A stretch of DNA of 34,634 bases from a virus (Duplodnaviria > Heunggongvirae > Uroviricota > Caudoviricetes), in the IMG/VR virus record IMGVR_UViG_2541047873_000007; one strand, given 5' to 3'. A model generated the notes under the pieces. It had not been told where the DNA came from, did no database searches, and worked only from the letters and a program-made list of their open reading frames with translations. The stretch's first letter is position 1; every line of letters starts with the position of its first letter. Positions 4,139-9,830 of this stretch are shown in pieces. The translations under genes and the position numbers were made by a program.

Positions 4139-4341
4139 GGGGCAATATCCTCTTCTGTACGGGCTTCTTCAGTCTCAATCACCGGGATCAGTAACAACAG
4201 CCCGGAGGGCAGCACCGGCGTGATGGCCACGTGCGGATTGGCGGCAATAATCCGGGGATAGCCCAGCGGGTCACCGTAGTACTGCCATGCCAGCGAATCC
4301 CAGCGCTCTCCGTCACGGGTAACATGTTCAAGAAACATCAC
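4126..4341 (-). CDS. Small tail protein, P2 gpX-like
   Basis: 71 aa; small protein inside the tail module; gpX-like assignment by size and position. Confidence 0.45.
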   Translation of the reverse strand: MMFLEHVTRDGERWDSLAWQYYGDPLGYPRIIAANPHVAITPVLPSGLLLLIPVIETEEARTEEDIAPWLR

Positions 4342-5222
4342 ACACTCCTCGTCAGTATTCTGGCGGCCATTGCACTTAATCCCGGAGACATGCGGTTGAA
4401 TGCTGTGCCGGCGGCGTTAAGCTGCCCGGAAACGGTATCCAGAGCACCTGCAATATTTCTTTTGTCCACACCACTCAGCGCAGACTGTGCCTGCTGTACA
4501 TACGTGGCTGCTTCGCTGGCTGTTCTGGCCAGACTGATGGCATCGGGCATGGATTCAGAGAGTGCGTTAAACGCCGGAACACTTTTCCCCAGAGCCCCGG
4601 AGATATTACCCAGTCCGCTCATCAGCCCCGGCACACGGGTCAGTGCGACAACGGGGTTATCCTTCATTTTCTGTGTCACCCGAACGGCGCTGATAGTGGT
4701 CTGGAGTACAGACTGCGCCTGTTTCGCATAGTTGACGCCGTTGCGGATGAACTGCGCCACCCCTGAAGGTGAAGGAATGGCACCGGAGACCGCCCCGACA
4801 CCCGGGAGCTTCGTGCGTATTGCCGGTGGTTGCAGAGGATTTTTCGGATCACCGGTGTATTCCCGGAGAGACACGGTGGCACTGACAGCCAGCACGTTAC
4901 CGGTGCTGTCTGTCTGCTCGCTGGTTGCGGTCACATCGGTAATCACGAACCAGCCACGATAGTCACCGTTGCCGAAGACCAGCGCCAGTGCCTGATGGGC
5001 TTTCATGGCTGTTCGCAGTCTCGCCAGCTCCACATCGGGTACACAATAATGCTGATGGAAAACCAGAGTTATCTGGATTTCGTCCAGCCTGTCGCCGACG
5101 AACTGCAGGCCAGGCTTACCCCCGATGCGGGCATGCTCCGCATAATCGACGCCGAACGTGGCCTCGAAGCCGTCCCAGTAGGTAATCAGCTCAAACTCAA
5201 TATCACCCAGTACGGCAAACAT
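4338..5222 (-). CDS. Tail protein (Mu N / DNA-circularisation-like)
   Basis: 294 aa immediately downstream of the tape measure, co-directional and overlapping. Confidence 0.5.
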   Translation of the reverse strand: MFAVLGDIEFELITYWDGFEATFGVDYAEHARIGGKPGLQFVGDRLDEIQITLVFHQHYCVPDVELARLRTAMKAHQALALVFGNGDYRGWFVITDVTATSEQTDSTGNVLAVSATVSLREYTGDPKNPLQPPAIRTKLPGVGAVSGAIPSPSGVAQFIRNGVNYAKQAQSVLQTTISAVRVTQKMKDNPVVALTRVPGLMSGLGNISGALGKSVPAFNALSESMPDAISLARTASEAATYVQQAQSALSGVDKRNIAGALDTVSGQLNAAGTAFNRMSPGLSAMAARILTRSV

Positions 5223-8200
5223 CAGCGGTACTCCTTACGTTGTTTCTGAGCCAGCAGACGCTCCAGCATTTTTTCCAGCTCATGCAGGCTCATATTCAGG
5301 GCGCCAGTCAGTCCGGCAGGCGCTGTGGTTTCCCTGCCATTGAGGAAAAACTGAGGATTAAAGCTGACCTGGATACCACCAGACGTTCCACCGCCGGTTG
5401 CAGCTGCACCACGGCCTGAATATCCGGCAGCCAGGATTTCAGGCGAGGGGATACGGGGAACATCCGGTGTCATCTCATTTGCCAGACGTTGCCCTGGTAA
5501 AATCGATGCCCGGGTGGAGAGCGGAATAGCGGGCATGGAAGACAAACTATTGATTACGGCTCCGATCGCATTTTTAGCAGACGACATAAACCCATTGATA
5601 TCGGGCAACGGCATACTGAAGCGAACACCTGAAGTGTTATCCCGTATTTCTGGCCCCTGAATGCTCACGGGCATTTTGGGGAGCAGTTCACTGGCCATTC
5701 GCTGCCCGGCCAGAGCTGCAAGCGGAGTGGTCCGCTGCAGGCCAATGGCGGCCCCCTGCGCGATATTGTCACCAAAGCCCATAAACACGCGGCTCGGCGA
5801 ATGAATGCCCAGCTTTTCGCTGAACCAGCCACTGATGCTGTCACCCATTCCGGTTACACTGGATTTGAGCGACTCCCATTTGTTTTTGATACCGTTAATC
5901 AGACCGTCGACAAGATGGCCACCGAAGTCGGTGAACTTTGCCGGCAGATCAACACCAAGATATTTCAGCGCAGCTGCAAAGGCTTTATAGAGCAGACCTG
6001 CCGGCGACCAGTTAATCAGCAGCTTACCAGTTCCCGCGATACCGCCGTTAAAGGCTTCCTGAATGTCAGCCCAGCACTGTTTAAACCAGCTACTGATGCT
6101 GTCACCCATTCCGGTTACACTGGATTTGAGCGACCCCCATTTGTTTTTGATACCGTTAATCAGACCGTCGATAAGATGGCCACCGAAGTCGGTGAACTTT
6201 GCCGGCAGAGCAACGCCGAAATATTTCAGCGCAGCCGCAAAGGCTTTATAGAGCAGGCCTGCCGGCGACCAGTTAATCAGCAACTTACCAGTTCCCGCGA
6301 TACCGCCGTTAAAGGCTTCCTGAATGTCAGCCCAGCACTGTTTAAACCAGCTACTGATGCTGTCACCCATTCCGGTTACACTGGATTTGAGCGACCCCCA
6401 TTTGTTTTTGATACCGTTAATCAGACCGTCGATAAGATGGCCACCGAAGTCGGTGAACTTTGCCGGCAGAGCAACGCCGAAATATTTCAGCGCAGCCGCA
6501 AAGGCTTTATAGAGCAGGCCTGCCGGCGACCAGTTAATCAGCAACTTACCAATTCCCACAATGCCGCCGTTAAAGGCTTCCTGAATGTCTGCCCAGCGCT
6601 GTTTAAACCAGCCACTGACTGCCCCCCAGTTGCGGTAGATAAGGTAAGCTGCTGCCGCGACAGCGGTGATAACGAGACCGATGGGATTCATCATCAGCGC
6701 ACGTCCAATCCAGAGAACAGCACGTCCGGCGAGCATAATTCCGCGAACCAGCCCCCCGGAGAGCACGCCACTCAGTGTTCTGGCTCCTTTGGCGACGGCG
6801 CTAAATCCGGTCACCAGCCAGCGGAGCTTACCGCCTTGCCCCAGTGCGAGCGACAGACGAAGCCAGTTGGCCCGAAGTAAAACAGCATTTTTCCAGACAC
6901 TTACAAAGGGGGAAATAAGGAGATTCAGCCCCAGTTTGAGACCAACAGTCGCTATCTTAATCGCAAGGAGCGCACTGATGAGCTTAAAAGCCCCACTGAC
7001 AAATTGCGGGTGAGTCGCTACCCAGTGTTTTGCCCCCTGAATGAGTGGAAGCAGTTCCTGAGTCAGAGAAATAAAAGATGGAGCTAATTGATCGCCCAGC
7101 GTAATTGCCAGATCACGACTGCTGACCATAAGTGCTTTAGTGGCTTCAAGGGGAGATTTCAGCCGCTGATCATAAGCACTGGCAAGCAAATCGTTATCCG
7201 CAGCCCTGAGAGCACCGGCACGGATCTCTCGATATCTGTCCATGTTGGCCAGCATCGGGCGGATAAATGCCATGACCTGCATATCCGCGAACATATCGCC
7301 CAGACCAAAGTTTTTCGCCAGAGCCTGAAGTGCCTCATCTCTTGCCGTATCATTCTTTATTTTCATGGCTGATTTGAAGCCGGCCAGCGCTTCGGGGCTT
7401 TTGGCATTGAGGTAACGTTCTATAACACTCAACATCCCTTCAATCGGAGAGATCCCCGCAGCTTTATAACTCGCAATAGATCCCTGCAAATCAATACCCA
7501 GATCAGCAAACTGTTTCTGAGTATCGCGGGCAAAAATTTTGGTAAGAAAGTTTTTAAAATTATTGGCTGCTTCGTCGGTGGAACCTGCACCGATTTTTGC
7601 TATCTGGAGACTGGCCCCGATTTCAGCAACAGCCTCTTTTCCACTGGCAATACCCGCCATCATTGGGGCCAGGGACTGCATCCACTTGACCTGATCCGGG
7701 ATTTCAAATGACCCCTGGTCACCGGCATAAGCCATAATATTCTGAACGGCACCAAAATCTCTGGCCGCACCTTTCAGGGAGTTTTGCCAGACTGCGGCCA
7801 CTTTTGCCCAGTCCTGAGCAGACGTGCGTGTTGCCGTTGCCGCGCGGGCAATATCCGGCATCAGAAAACCGATATCTGACACATTATCAATATTGTCGCT
7901 GATGAGTGAACCCACCGCCTCCTGCAGCTCATCCTGATACTGATTGTATTTAAGCGCCCAGCCTTTTATCTGTCCGGCAAGTGCATCCCGCGTTTTATTG
8001 TCATATTTTGCGGTGATCGACATATCAATCATTTTGTCCTGAAAAGACATGGACTGCTGAACGGCAGGGGAAACCGTATGATAAACAGTCTGTGCCATGC
8101 CATACGCTTCAATCCCCTGACCATACAGCGCCATGCGGTTAGCTTTCAGCGCATCACTGGTAGCGGATGCCGCTGACAGACGGCGCTGCTGGCGCTCAAT

Positions 8201-8434
8201 TTGCTCCATGGTGCGGCTTACCCGCAGCAGCTCGCTGTTGAGATGCTGCATCCGGGAAGAACCCAGTTGACCATAACGTTCTGTTGCACGGGTTAAAGCG
8301 TTCTGACGTTCCTGCAGGCGGCGTGAGGTATCGCTCAGGGAATCAAGCGCACGGCGGGTACCGCTCATTGCAGAACGGAATGTGCTACCAATCATCCCGC
8401 CGATAACAACGCCGACTGAAAACTGTCCCGACAT
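5222..8434 (-). CDS. Tail tape measure protein
   Basis: 1070 aa; helical N-terminus, hydrophobic central segments, internal 87-aa triplication; GGAGG 8 nt upstream of ATG 8434; sits between chaperone and baseplate genes. Confidence 0.9.
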   Translation of the reverse strand: MSGQFSVGVVIGGMIGSTFRSAMSGTRRALDSLSDTSRRLQERQNALTRATERYGQLGSSRMQHLNSELLRVSRTMEQIERQQRRLSAASATSDALKANRMALYGQGIEAYGMAQTVYHTVSPAVQQSMSFQDKMIDMSITAKYDNKTRDALAGQIKGWALKYNQYQDELQEAVGSLISDNIDNVSDIGFLMPDIARAATATRTSAQDWAKVAAVWQNSLKGAARDFGAVQNIMAYAGDQGSFEIPDQVKWMQSLAPMMAGIASGKEAVAEIGASLQIAKIGAGSTDEAANNFKNFLTKIFARDTQKQFADLGIDLQGSIASYKAAGISPIEGMLSVIERYLNAKSPEALAGFKSAMKIKNDTARDEALQALAKNFGLGDMFADMQVMAFIRPMLANMDRYREIRAGALRAADNDLLASAYDQRLKSPLEATKALMVSSRDLAITLGDQLAPSFISLTQELLPLIQGAKHWVATHPQFVSGAFKLISALLAIKIATVGLKLGLNLLISPFVSVWKNAVLLRANWLRLSLALGQGGKLRWLVTGFSAVAKGARTLSGVLSGGLVRGIMLAGRAVLWIGRALMMNPIGLVITAVAAAAYLIYRNWGAVSGWFKQRWADIQEAFNGGIVGIGKLLINWSPAGLLYKAFAAALKYFGVALPAKFTDFGGHLIDGLINGIKNKWGSLKSSVTGMGDSISSWFKQCWADIQEAFNGGIAGTGKLLINWSPAGLLYKAFAAALKYFGVALPAKFTDFGGHLIDGLINGIKNKWGSLKSSVTGMGDSISSWFKQCWADIQEAFNGGIAGTGKLLINWSPAGLLYKAFAAALKYLGVDLPAKFTDFGGHLVDGLINGIKNKWESLKSSVTGMGDSISGWFSEKLGIHSPSRVFMGFGDNIAQGAAIGLQRTTPLAALAGQRMASELLPKMPVSIQGPEIRDNTSGVRFSMPLPDINGFMSSAKNAIGAVINSLSSMPAIPLSTRASILPGQRLANEMTPDVPRIPSPEILAAGYSGRGAAATGGGTSGGIQVSFNPQFFLNGRETTAPAGLTGALNMSLHELEKMLERLLAQKQRKEYR
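5825..6607. repeat. Three tandem copies of a 261-bp (87-codon) unit inside the tape measure gene
   Basis: Units start at 5825, 6086 and 6347; copies 2 and 3 near-identical, copy 1 slightly diverged; protein repeat SWFKQ(C/R)WADIQEAFNGGI...GMGDSIS x3. Confidence 0.9.
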
Positions 8435-8509
8435 AGTGGTTAACCTCCGGGGAAGGTGAAAAGACGTGAGGGGATAACGCAGAACAGCCGCTACTGGCGG
8501 CTGTCTGTA

Positions 8510-8767
8510 CTATGATTTGTCGCCGTACTCGCTTTTTATTTGCTCTTCAGCCTGCTCCAGCCACATCTCCAGATCGTCAGTATCGAGGGCATCAATCTCC
8601 CCCGGCTGAAACCGGAACCATCTCGCCAGCAGCCCCTGCGCCTGCGTCAGCGCCCTGGTTGCTCTCACCCATCCCCGTGATGAGCTGAAATCGTTTCTGT
8701 AACTGCAGGTAATCAGCCAGATCCATATTGTCGAGATCTTCCGGGAGAAGACCAGTACTGCGGGCAA
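8510..8767 (-). CDS. Probable frameshift extension of the tail chaperone
   Basis: Overlapping ORF in another frame; only its C-terminal about 35 aa (FQPGEIDALDTDDLEMWLEQAEEQIKSEYGDKS) look protein-like. Confidence 0.4.
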   Translation of the reverse strand: MPAVLVFSRKISTIWIWLITCSYRNDFSSSRGWVRATRALTQAQGLLARWFRFQPGEIDALDTDDLEMWLEQAEEQIKSEYGDKS

Positions 8768-8927
8768 TCAGCGGTTCGTCCCAGTCTGCCGGGTTTTTGC
8801 TGATTTTGCGCACCTGCTTCAGGTCTTTTACCGTCAGGCGTTTCAGTTCAACCAGCTCAATTCTGGTGCCTGCAGCAGTGGTGAAGGGATAAGACAATTT
8901 AAAAGTATCGGATGGGGTCTGTGACAT
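8592..8927 (-). CDS. Tail assembly chaperone
   Basis: 111 aa directly upstream of the tape measure; AGGAG 8 nt upstream of ATG 8927. Confidence 0.6.
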   Translation of the reverse strand: MSQTPSDTFKLSYPFTTAAGTRIELVELKRLTVKDLKQVRKISKNPADWDEPLIARSTGLLPEDLDNMDLADYLQLQKRFQLITGMGESNQGADAGAGAAGEMVPVSAGGD

Positions 8928-8979
8928 GATTGTGCTCCTGTGTAAGTTCAGGGCAGTATGTCGGGAGAAGCGCGTGACG

Positions 8980-9001
8980 GATATTAAAGGAGATTAAGAA
9001 G
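8980..9001 (-). promoter_or_regulatory. Late promoter/activator-site motif B (GATATTAAAGGAGATTAAGAAG), upstream of the tail chaperone
   Basis: 20 of 22 positions identical to motif A; 53 nt upstream of ATG 8927. Confidence 0.5.
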
Positions 9002-9002
9002 A

Positions 9003-9018
9003 AGGGGCCGGAGCCCCT
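9003..9018 (-). terminator. Hairpin GGGGC-CGGA-GCCCC downstream of the 93-aa ORF, next to late promoter motif B
   Basis: Perfect 5-6 bp GC stem seen in sequence; the following T-run is weak. Confidence 0.3.
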
Positions 9019-9024
9019 GTGATG

Positions 9025-9306
9025 TCAGCAAGTGCGAAACCCCTTGCAGTTACGCAGGAAAGCGATGAGAAGCGTCTTTCCCTCAGATTTGCCGATGCCG
9101 GAGAACCAGTGGTCGGGAGGCTCCCATGCTTCAATCAAATCCGCCAGTTTGCGGGCCTTTGAACGTGTGCAGTCAATCGGGTCATTGGTTTTACGGGTAT
9201 TAAAAAGGGTTTCCACCCCCGGAATATCAAGGAGGGTAAACCACGTACCATTTGACATGCCCAGTGCCGCACATCGTCCTCCTTTATCCGTCAGTTCAAC
9301 ACTCAC
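9025..9306 (-). CDS. Hypothetical protein between tail tube and chaperone
   Basis: 93-aa ORF, co-directional, followed by a hairpin; no recognisable motif. Confidence 0.4.
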   Translation of the reverse strand: MSVELTDKGGRCAALGMSNGTWFTLLDIPGVETLFNTRKTNDPIDCTRSKARKLADLIEAWEPPDHWFSGIGKSEGKTLLIAFLRNCKGFRTC

Positions 9307-9308
9307 CG

Positions 9309-9830
9309 TCAGCCCCCGATATTGATACGGTAGTCAGTCAGTTGATCAACACCGCCGACCCGGAAGATGTTGGCCAGATAGTCCAGTTGCAGCAGCTCTT
9401 CACCATCCAGTACCTGTCTGATATACGTGCAGGTGAAGCTACTGGAGAACTCGGCGTTCTCGTGCTGTTTGAACGTCCCCAGCGGGTTCTTCTTGAACAT
9501 AATCGTCAGGAAGGTGACCAGCGGGATTTCGTCAATCAGCCCCTGCGAGCTGTAGCGCTGGACGCTGGAACGACACTGCAGTGCCAGCGACCTGTACGGG
9601 TTCGCGGCAGACAGCATCGCATCGCGGTAAAAGCTGTTCCATTTGATTTCGCCTTCCAGTTTGTCAAAACCAGCCGGGAGTTCCACCTTACCCACCATCC
9701 CCAGCGCCTTGTGTTCCTGCATAATCATGGAGACATCGGGGAGTTTAACTTCCTCAGCCCGTCCCAGCAGGTTAGTACCATCCAGATAGATGTTGGCATT
9801 CGTGATGCGGTTTATCTCAATCTTTGACAT
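9309..9830 (-). CDS. Tail tube protein
   Basis: 173 aa directly downstream of the sheath gene. Confidence 0.7.
   Translation of the reverse strand: MSKIEINRITNANIYLDGTNLLGRAEEVKLPDVSMIMQEHKALGMVGKVELPAGFDKLEGEIKWNSFYRDAMLSAANPYRSLALQCRSSVQRYSSQGLIDEIPLVTFLTIMFKKNPLGTFKQHENAEFSSSFTCTYIRQVLDGEELLQLDYLANIFRVGGVDQLTDYRINIGG

Follow-up and report, generated by a model that had tools for sequence, protein, structure and literature searches.

A probable +1 frameshift at a conserved CGA_UUU_C site in the tail assembly chaperone gene of a BcepMu-like Escherichia coli prophage

The tail assembly chaperone of a BcepMu-like (Mu-like) Escherichia coli prophage is probably made in a short and a long form, by a +1 shift of ribosomes at the sequence CGA_UUU_C. 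The prophage is represented by the IMG/VR record IMGVR_UViG_2541047873_000007, whose 34,634 nucleotides (nt) are referred to here as the window; all coordinates are window coordinates, and every gene of the module in question lies on the minus strand. The candidate shift site (8687..8693) comprises the codons for Arg79 and Phe80 and the first base of codon 81 of the chaperone gene (8592..8927), and it is marked out both by its conservation and by the stop codons that bracket it. The best explanation of the locus, as judged from sequence comparison, is a chaperone pair of the kind represented by gpE and gpE+E' of phage P2. The prophage is classified with the Mu-like phages of the genus Bcepmuvirus, and the locus region is 99.7% identical to Escherichia phage PhiKM, a member of that genus. 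Related DNA was found in 641 of the 5426 complete E. coli genomes searched (in 577 of these at an identity of at least 99%).

The frame-0 gene (8592..8927) is predicted to give a gpE-like short product of 111 amino acids (aa), its stop codon being the TGA at 8594-8592. This product matches PF10109 Phage_TAC_7 (E = 5.5e-21, 74.8 bits versus a gathering cut-off of 25), a family described as 'Phage tail assembly chaperone proteins, E, or 41 or 14'. The domain covers residues 8-81 (8685..8906) and would be common to both products up to Phe80. PF10109 was the only family returned by a Pfam scan of the window chaperone, with no match to PF23746. The chaperone also matches phrog_166 'tail protein' (E = 2.8e-32), and its RefSeq label is 'phage tail assembly protein'. 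Neither the chaperone nor the extension described below has a sequence relative in the PDB or a model in NCBIfam.

The chaperone gene (8927-8592) is overlapped by a mechanical +1-frame open reading frame (ORF) of 85 codons from stop to stop (8510..8767). As 8927 mod 3 = 2 and 8767 mod 3 = 1, the extension on the minus strand is offset from the chaperone by one base in the downstream direction, which makes it +1 (= -2); the recomputed frames agree with those given by the first-pass annotation, an earlier model-made description of this DNA. That description called the arrangement 'not the usual -1', which is correct with respect to lambda and P2, but a +1/-2 geometry was already known in phage Mu. 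The upstream part of the ORF (8767-8690) shows no selection in the +1 frame, with a ratio of nonsynonymous to synonymous polymorphism (pN/pS) of 1.0-2.9 upstream of codon 77. The part proposed to be translated (8510..8689) consists of 59 codons from UUC to TAG (8512-8510) and reads FSSSRGWVRATRALTQAQGLLARWFRFQPGEIDALDTDDLEMWLEQAEEQIKSEYGDKS. The predicted fusion therefore comprises M1-R79 followed by this extension (79 + 59 = 138 aa), with the predicted junction ..LQLQKRF-SSSRGW.., and its +1-frame translation includes the peptides GWVR, ALTQAQGLLAR and FQPGEIDALDTDDLEMWLEQAEEQIK.

To judge from its relatives, the extension is not a chance ORF, because it matches phrog_8286 (E = 8e-34) and stands in the same +1 relation to the chaperone in related phages. 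The latter include phages of Klebsiella, Salmonella, Ralstonia and Pseudomonas, down to ~30% identity, and in total the +1 extension is conserved in >100 loci. The conserved two-product arrangement upstream of the tape measure gene, as put forward in the first-pass annotation, is supported, and so is its placing of the extension in the +1/-2 frame. The most conserved motif of the extension is LLARWFRFQP (+1-frame pN/pS 0.04-0.08). In an alignment of 18 diverse extensions from the Phe codon on, the residues F1, W7, L21, P29, E31, L35, W43 and I51 are invariant, and an invariant Trp is found 3-6 residues past the Phe codon in all 18. The core of the extension (8531..8629; LARWFRFQPGEIDALDTDDLEMWLEQAEEQIK) is P2 E'-like. 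The window extension matches PF06528 Phage_P2_GpE with E = 0.0016-0.01 and 15.7-18.4 bits, below the gathering score of 23, whereas 13 of the 18 family members match it at E <= 0.05, the best with 6.4e-6. An hhalign profile comparison of the extension with P2 E' gave a probability of 82.7% (E = 9.4e-6). These profile matches make the extension a likely homologue of the E' region in P2 gpE+E' (PF06528).

Selection passes from one frame to the other at the candidate site. In 58 unique enteric sequences, for which the entropy at each codon position was calculated, the body of the gene varies at the third positions of frame 0. Beyond about codon 97, and as far as the extension stop, it is the first positions of frame 0 that vary, which are the third positions of the +1 frame. 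Sliding frame-0 pN/pS in the enteric sequences is 0.10-0.16 up to codons 70-77, 0.41 at codons 76-83 and then ~1 or higher, ranging from ~1 to >5 over the extension. In the +1 frame, the ratio is 1-3 upstream, falls to 0.4-0.6 right past the site and reaches 0.04-0.2 in the core. The frame switch in enterics thus falls at codons 77-82, and in 13 Burkholderia/Ralstonia prophages, which form an independent clade, selection switches frame at the same codon. For the linker between site and core alone, the frame-0/frame+1 pN/pS values are 0.93/0.49 and 1.35/0.61 (codon-bootstrap fractions 0.048 and 0.0105). The frame-0 tail past Phe80, which has 31 residues in the window and 24 in most relatives and is Gly/Ala-rich in the window, looks unconstrained by the same measure (pN/pS ~1 to >5).

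A natural variant of this tail was seen in L026 and L027, two otherwise near-identical prophage copies that carry CAG->TAG at chaperone codon 91 (equivalent to window 8657). The TAG shortens the frame-0 product and leaves the +1 frame intact, which is consistent with a dispensable frame-0 tail after Phe80.

The sequence at the site is strongly conserved. In the 58 enteric sequences, codons 77-81 (CAG AAA CGA TTT CAG) are essentially invariant at all three positions. CGA, TTT and the following C have zero entropy, compared with wobble entropies of 0.6-1.5 for the other Arg and Phe codons of the gene. A wider set of 80 related viral contigs gave 42 distinct sequences around the site. In all 39 of 39 distinct contexts, from four phage groups including enteric, Burkholderia/Ralstonia and Pseudomonas phages, the Phe codon is TTT and the next base C; the codon following TTT is CAG, CAA, CTG, CTT or CGG, and the preceding one is CGA in 34 of the 39. 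A third set was assembled by means of the extension motif LLARWFRF[QP] alone, without reference to the shift site, and comprised 59 species-level genomic loci. All intact loci among them (57/57) have a single frame-0 TTT_C in the stretch from the last +1-frame stop to the core, 16-19 codons ahead of LLARW; the two loci that deviate are a contig end (L172) and a decayed copy (L182). The codon before TTT in these 57 loci is CGA in 43, GCC in 5, TTT in 3 and one of six others once each. The BcepMu site reads UCC_UUU_CGC, as does that of L176, and some relatives have TTT_TTT_C, yet their extension is still in the +1 frame. The prophages of the clade that shares UUU_C are BcepMu-like or related ones, from Enterobacterales, Burkholderiales, Pseudomonas and other groups. 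In the window itself, CGA accounts for 4.3% of the Arg codons of the long ORFs, and CGATTTC occurs in frame only at 8693-8687 (ORFs of at least 100 aa).

Stop codons on both sides narrow the interval further. In the +1 frame, all of the Burkholderia loci and most of those from Pseudomonas have a TGA three codons before TTT. In frame 0, a stop lies 2-9 codons past TTT in eight species, including L165, where it is 2 codons past. Because these +1 stops upstream and frame-0 stops downstream bracket TTT, a shift site that is homologous throughout the family must lie within -3 to +2 codons of it. Inside this interval, only TTT_C would let a P-site tRNA re-pair in the +1 frame. By this comparison, the frame switch maps to CGA_UUU_C, ~90 nt upstream of a run of G residues that had been the earlier slippery candidate and 31 codons before the frame-0 stop. 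A conserved candidate slippery sequence does sit inside the overlap of the two frames, but it is UUU_C and not a canonical X_XXY_YYZ heptamer.

The switch is taken to be ribosomal, and +1 rather than -2. Most ribosomes would stay in frame 0 up to the TGA at 8594-8592 and produce the 111-aa chaperone, and a minority would shift +1 at CGA_UUU_C (8693-8687). The tRNA presumed to slip is tRNA-Phe (anticodon GAA), which, with UUU (8690-8688) in the P site, would re-pair to the overlapping UUC (8689-8687). The same product would arise by an alternative route, if Phe-tRNA were taken out of frame on UUC after a poorly decoded CGA. The long product of 138 aa would consist of the PF10109 chaperone domain fused to the P2 E'-like domain. 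If the lambda G/GT and P2 E/E+E' pairs are a guide, the tape measure protein would be bound by both forms and the tube protein recruited by the extension. This division of labour follows the lambda/P2 model, in which both chaperone forms bind the tape measure protein and the extension binds the tube protein (PMC5009743). A slip from UUU to UUC is also the +1 event established for influenza PA-X, at UCC_UUU_CGU (PMC3498833). In the context of RF2, UUU is reported to be among the most shift-prone P-site codons (PMC10274946). The near invariance of CGA in the enteric and Burkholderia lineages, though not universal, is suggestive of a possible role of this codon in the shift.

Several observations weigh against a shift at this site. 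No conserved RNA structure was found there (the RNAalifold consensus of 17 diverse sequences has -0.63 kcal/mol), and a Shine-Dalgarno-like sequence upstream of the site is not consistently present in relatives. CAG, the codon that occupies the A site in frame 0, is no rare codon in E. coli, and as no stimulator was found either, a useful shift rate at UUU_C is left unexplained. The distance of 31 codons from the site to the frame-0 stop is unusually long, the corresponding distance in P2 and Mu being 6 codons. In the 15-codon linker past the site, the codon-position variability is mixed, and the pN/pS contrast between the frames is only moderately significant. The GenBank record of BcepMu reads gp42 as an independent gene that frameshifts into gp43, and the case for a shift in this chaperone family is so far a comparative one. 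Finally, UUU_C might in principle be invariant because it is dual coding, with Phe in both frames, and not because it is a slip site. This last objection is countered by the +1-frame stop three codons upstream, which leaves no other site for re-pairing. A hairpin predicted 2 nt past UUU in the window was dropped as a stimulator, as it is not conserved, and Rfam has no match in 8300-9100.

It is unlikely that the extension is instead a separate small gene with its own internal start, for which no frameshift would be needed. Stand-alone proteins of ~54 aa that start at GTG, residue 34 of the ORF, are called in phrog_8286, some gene callers likewise imply a separate gene, the BcepMu gp42 is annotated as an independent coding sequence (CDS), and in many relatives the +1 frame contains an ATG or GTG at some point ahead of the core. 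However, no start codon in the +1 frame is conserved: the candidate positions differ among lineages, and in L099, L112, L118 and L121 the stretch from the +1 stop to the core is devoid of ATG, GTG and TTG. An independent start codon was rejected as a general mechanism on these grounds. Moreover, most of the candidate starts lie downstream of the point where constraint on the +1 frame, with the invariant Trp (W7), sets in, the E' domain of the homologous P2 system exists as a fusion only, and a separate gene would leave the invariance of UUU_C unexplained. Even less credence is due to a +1 slip on GGG_G at codons 98-99 (8636-8633), which would give the product ..DAGAG-LLARWFRF.. and keep the core. 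In the window, this tetramer would let GGG re-pair perfectly to GGG, and the LLARW core begins just after it, but it is not conserved: GGG_C, GGG_T and GGG_A variants occur, as does GGC in Salmonella-type relatives, and all of these are wobble changes of a +1-frame Gly/Ala codon. The +1-frame constraint and the invariant Trp also lie upstream of it, and in eight species frame 0 has ended before the equivalent position.

The G-run named in the first-pass annotation, CCGGGGGAG (8597..8605), is present in the overlap at 8605-8597, where it encodes Pro-Gly-Glu of the extension and forms part of the frame-0 sequence GCC GGG GGA GAT TGA. A +1 or -2 shift on it, just before the TGA, would give the product ..PVSAG-EIDALD... 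Its five G would let tRNA-Gly re-pair from GGG to GGG, it adjoins the stop in the same manner as the lambda, P2 and Mu sites, and the proven -2 site of Mu is also G-rich. As a shift site, however, the run is a most improbable choice. It is not conserved, and its variants (CCT/CCA-GGGGAG, CCGGGTGAG, CCCAGTGAA and CCGAGTGAG) are all +1-frame wobble changes of Pro-Gly/Ser-Glu. In most relatives, including Klebsiella phage KP12, it lies past the frame-0 stop: frame 0 ends in ..GEVV and a stop, seven codons upstream of the run, and the extension is unchanged. As LLARWFRFQP is encoded upstream of the run, a shift there would discard the most constrained stretch of the extension. The database proteins joined at the run are scattered single-read indel artefacts among many random junctions. 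Next to no probability attaches to a Mu-type -2 shift, or to a change at the RNA level (transcriptional slippage), as the way to reach the same frame. Phage Mu does have a verified -2 shift to the same relative frame. Nevertheless, no position in the bracketed interval allows -2 re-pairing, as UUU moved by -2 lands on GAU, CCU and similar triplets. The Mu chaperone belongs mainly to a different Pfam family (PF23746), and the Mu extension has no PF06528 match. The T3 and G5 runs of the locus are also far shorter than the homopolymers known to support transcriptional slippage.

In-frame 138-aa 'fusion' proteins from databases were discarded as markers of the junction; they are indel artefacts, mostly from raw-read assemblies, and their junctions are scattered (codons 41, 85 and 91, and the G-run). 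In L079 (IMGVR_UViG_2734481909_000003), a C is lost before the G-run, at about window 8606, which places the distal half of the extension in the chaperone frame, and several database proteins (P0003-P0009) are likewise 'fused' at the G-run. These cases are most likely homopolymer indels or sequencing errors, the run being indel-prone.

The proposed +1 shift at UUU_C can be compared with several known systems, of which gpE/gpE+E' of P2 is the closest in domain content. There, as in the window, a PF10109 domain is followed by a domain of the E' type (PF06528 in P2), and the gene lies between those for the tube and the tape measure. The experimentally established -1 site of P2, G_UUU_UUU_G, covers residues 84-86, at the C-terminal edge of PF10109 (P2 residues 7-85), and Phe80 of the window is at the same domain boundary, within about three profile positions. 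Around the junction, the +1 product of L165 reads ..GFF|AEARISEEVLW.. and the P2 protein ..GFL|FAELGAVTF... P2-like phages have been reported to have no downstream RNA structure, as was found for the window site. The two systems differ in the direction and sequence of the shift, which is +1 on UUU_C in the window and -1 on U6G (TTTTTTG) in P2, and in the distance of the site from the frame-0 stop (31 and 6 codons, respectively). In addition, the window extension does not overlap the tape measure gene and scores below the PF06528 gathering cut-off. Gp41/Mu_56 of Mu shares with the window the tail module of a Mu-like myovirus and an extension in the same relative frame (+1 = -2). However, its verified -2 shift takes place at CGG_GGG_CGA, 6 codons before the stop, a motif that is not conserved in the window family, the PF10109 match of its chaperone (PF23746) is sub-threshold, and its extension lacks similarity to PF06528.

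The logic of lambda gpG/gpGT is the same, in that two forms are made in a fixed ratio, the extension is thought to bind the tube protein and neither form is present in the virion (PMC5009743). The lambda shift, though, is -1 at G_GGA_AAG, in the other direction and on another motif, and lambda is likened here by function and not by sequence. Some members with PF10109 and PF06528 use G_GGA_AAG (Pasteurella AFS-2018a and L110). Influenza A PA-X shares the proposed tRNA-Phe slip from UUU to UUC, and the UCC_UUU_CGC of BcepMu and L176 resembles the UCC_UUU_CGU of PA-X (PMC3498833). It differs in being eukaryotic and in having a rare Arg codon as the slow A-site codon. In the window family, the next codon is usually CAG, and the commonest conserved neighbour is the upstream CGA. 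BcepMu (AY539836) has the same gene family and overlap geometry, with gp42 in the +1 frame relative to gp41. Its record differs in treating gp42 as the analogue of lambda G that frameshifts into gp43, whereas here gp41 is the chaperone and gp42 its +1 extension.

The RefSeq E. coli chromosome record and the PhiKM record list the short chaperone alone, the 138-aa product being absent, and no fusion product is annotated in the database records examined. In the BcepMu record (AY539836, L123; 4603-5364), where the site reads UCC_UUU_CGC, gp43 overlaps the start of the tape measure gene. Because gp41 is a PF10109 chaperone and gp42 is, by homology, its +1 extension, the comparison suggests that the BcepMu annotation should be revisited. 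In L001 (NZ_CP025851.1), the RefSeq locus tags at 4309-4467 jump from CXX11_RS04315 (chaperone) to CXX11_RS04325 (tape measure). The jump could mean that an earlier annotation had a CDS over the extension region that was later removed.

Few natural +1 frameshift sites are known from bacteria and bacteriophages. A motif common to forward shifts in general has yet to be identified (PMC10274946). No description of a UUU_C +1 site in tail chaperones was found in the literature searched, the coverage of which was incomplete, so that an earlier listing is possible. With this limit, a +1 UUU_C site far upstream of the stop would be new, and the two-form tail chaperone device as such is already well known. 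A wider proposal, with roughly even chances of being correct, has three parts: that UUU_C at the domain-closing Phe codon is a minimal +1 signal throughout the clade, that -1 and +1 recoding have been switched at a single site via small indels, and that the E-site CGA is a previously unrecognised bacterial stimulator of +1 shifts. If the shift is real, the locus would provide a clean bacterial model for P-site slippage from UUU to UUC, present in many genera, with no detectable RNA structure and with a PA-X-like motif, and it would permit a test of whether the E-site CGA codon matters. Annotation would be corrected by the addition of the 138-aa product, and the G and T roles in BcepMu would be reassigned. 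One protein family would then reach the same fusion by -1 (U6G or G_GGA_AAG), -2 (Mu) or +1 (UUU_C). Should experiments not confirm the shift, the locus is one for an ordinary tail chaperone.

The hairpin that the first-pass annotation placed just downstream of the extension stop exists, at 8507-8480. This intergenic element (8480..8507, minus strand) has the stem ACAGCCGC-loop-GCGGCTGT, a folding free energy (dG) of -18.1 kcal/mol and z = -4.6 versus shuffles. It begins 3 nt past the extension stop and lies ~45 nt before the tape measure start, and in E. coli/Klebsiella-type relatives the stem is kept and the loops vary. There is no U-tract behind it in the window, and a terminator scan made no call. 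A T-rich tract does follow the hairpin in L045, L072, L073 and L079, so that between the genes for the chaperone and the tape measure it may act as a partial terminator or in mRNA stability. A role in frameshifting is unlikely, since the hairpin is >170 nt downstream of the shift site.

The genes of the module follow one another on the minus strand in the order sheath, tube, small ORF, chaperone and tape measure. The tail sheath gene (11257-9830) matches PF04984/PF17482, and the tail tube gene (9309..9830) matches PF04985 Phage_tube (E = 2.9e-53). The tape measure gene (5222..8434) encodes a protein of 1070 aa that matches PF10145 (E = 2e-20) and is annotated as such. The chaperone gene thus sits between the tube and tape measure genes, with one small extra ORF (9306-9025) intervening. 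The chaperone presumably has the tape measure protein as its substrate, and its E'-like domain presumably pairs with the tube protein, in the way that lambda gpT binds gpV. The intervening ORF of 93 aa, between the tube and chaperone genes, matches phrog_1239 (E = 4.7e-48) and, weakly and below threshold, DUF7739. A terminator-like hairpin with a T-tract (AGGGGCTCCGGCCCCT TCTTCTT) lies 3' of it on the minus strand (9003-9018). The Salmonella SARB27 relative (L004) lacks this ORF, which may therefore be an accessory insert of the moron type. Within the tape measure gene, a unit of 261 nt (87 aa) is present in three tandem copies at 5823-6618, with 96% identity. In KP12 the homologous gene is shorter by 747 nt, and a sequencing gap interrupts the PhiKM record at the repeat, which suggests copy-number variation that would change tail length.

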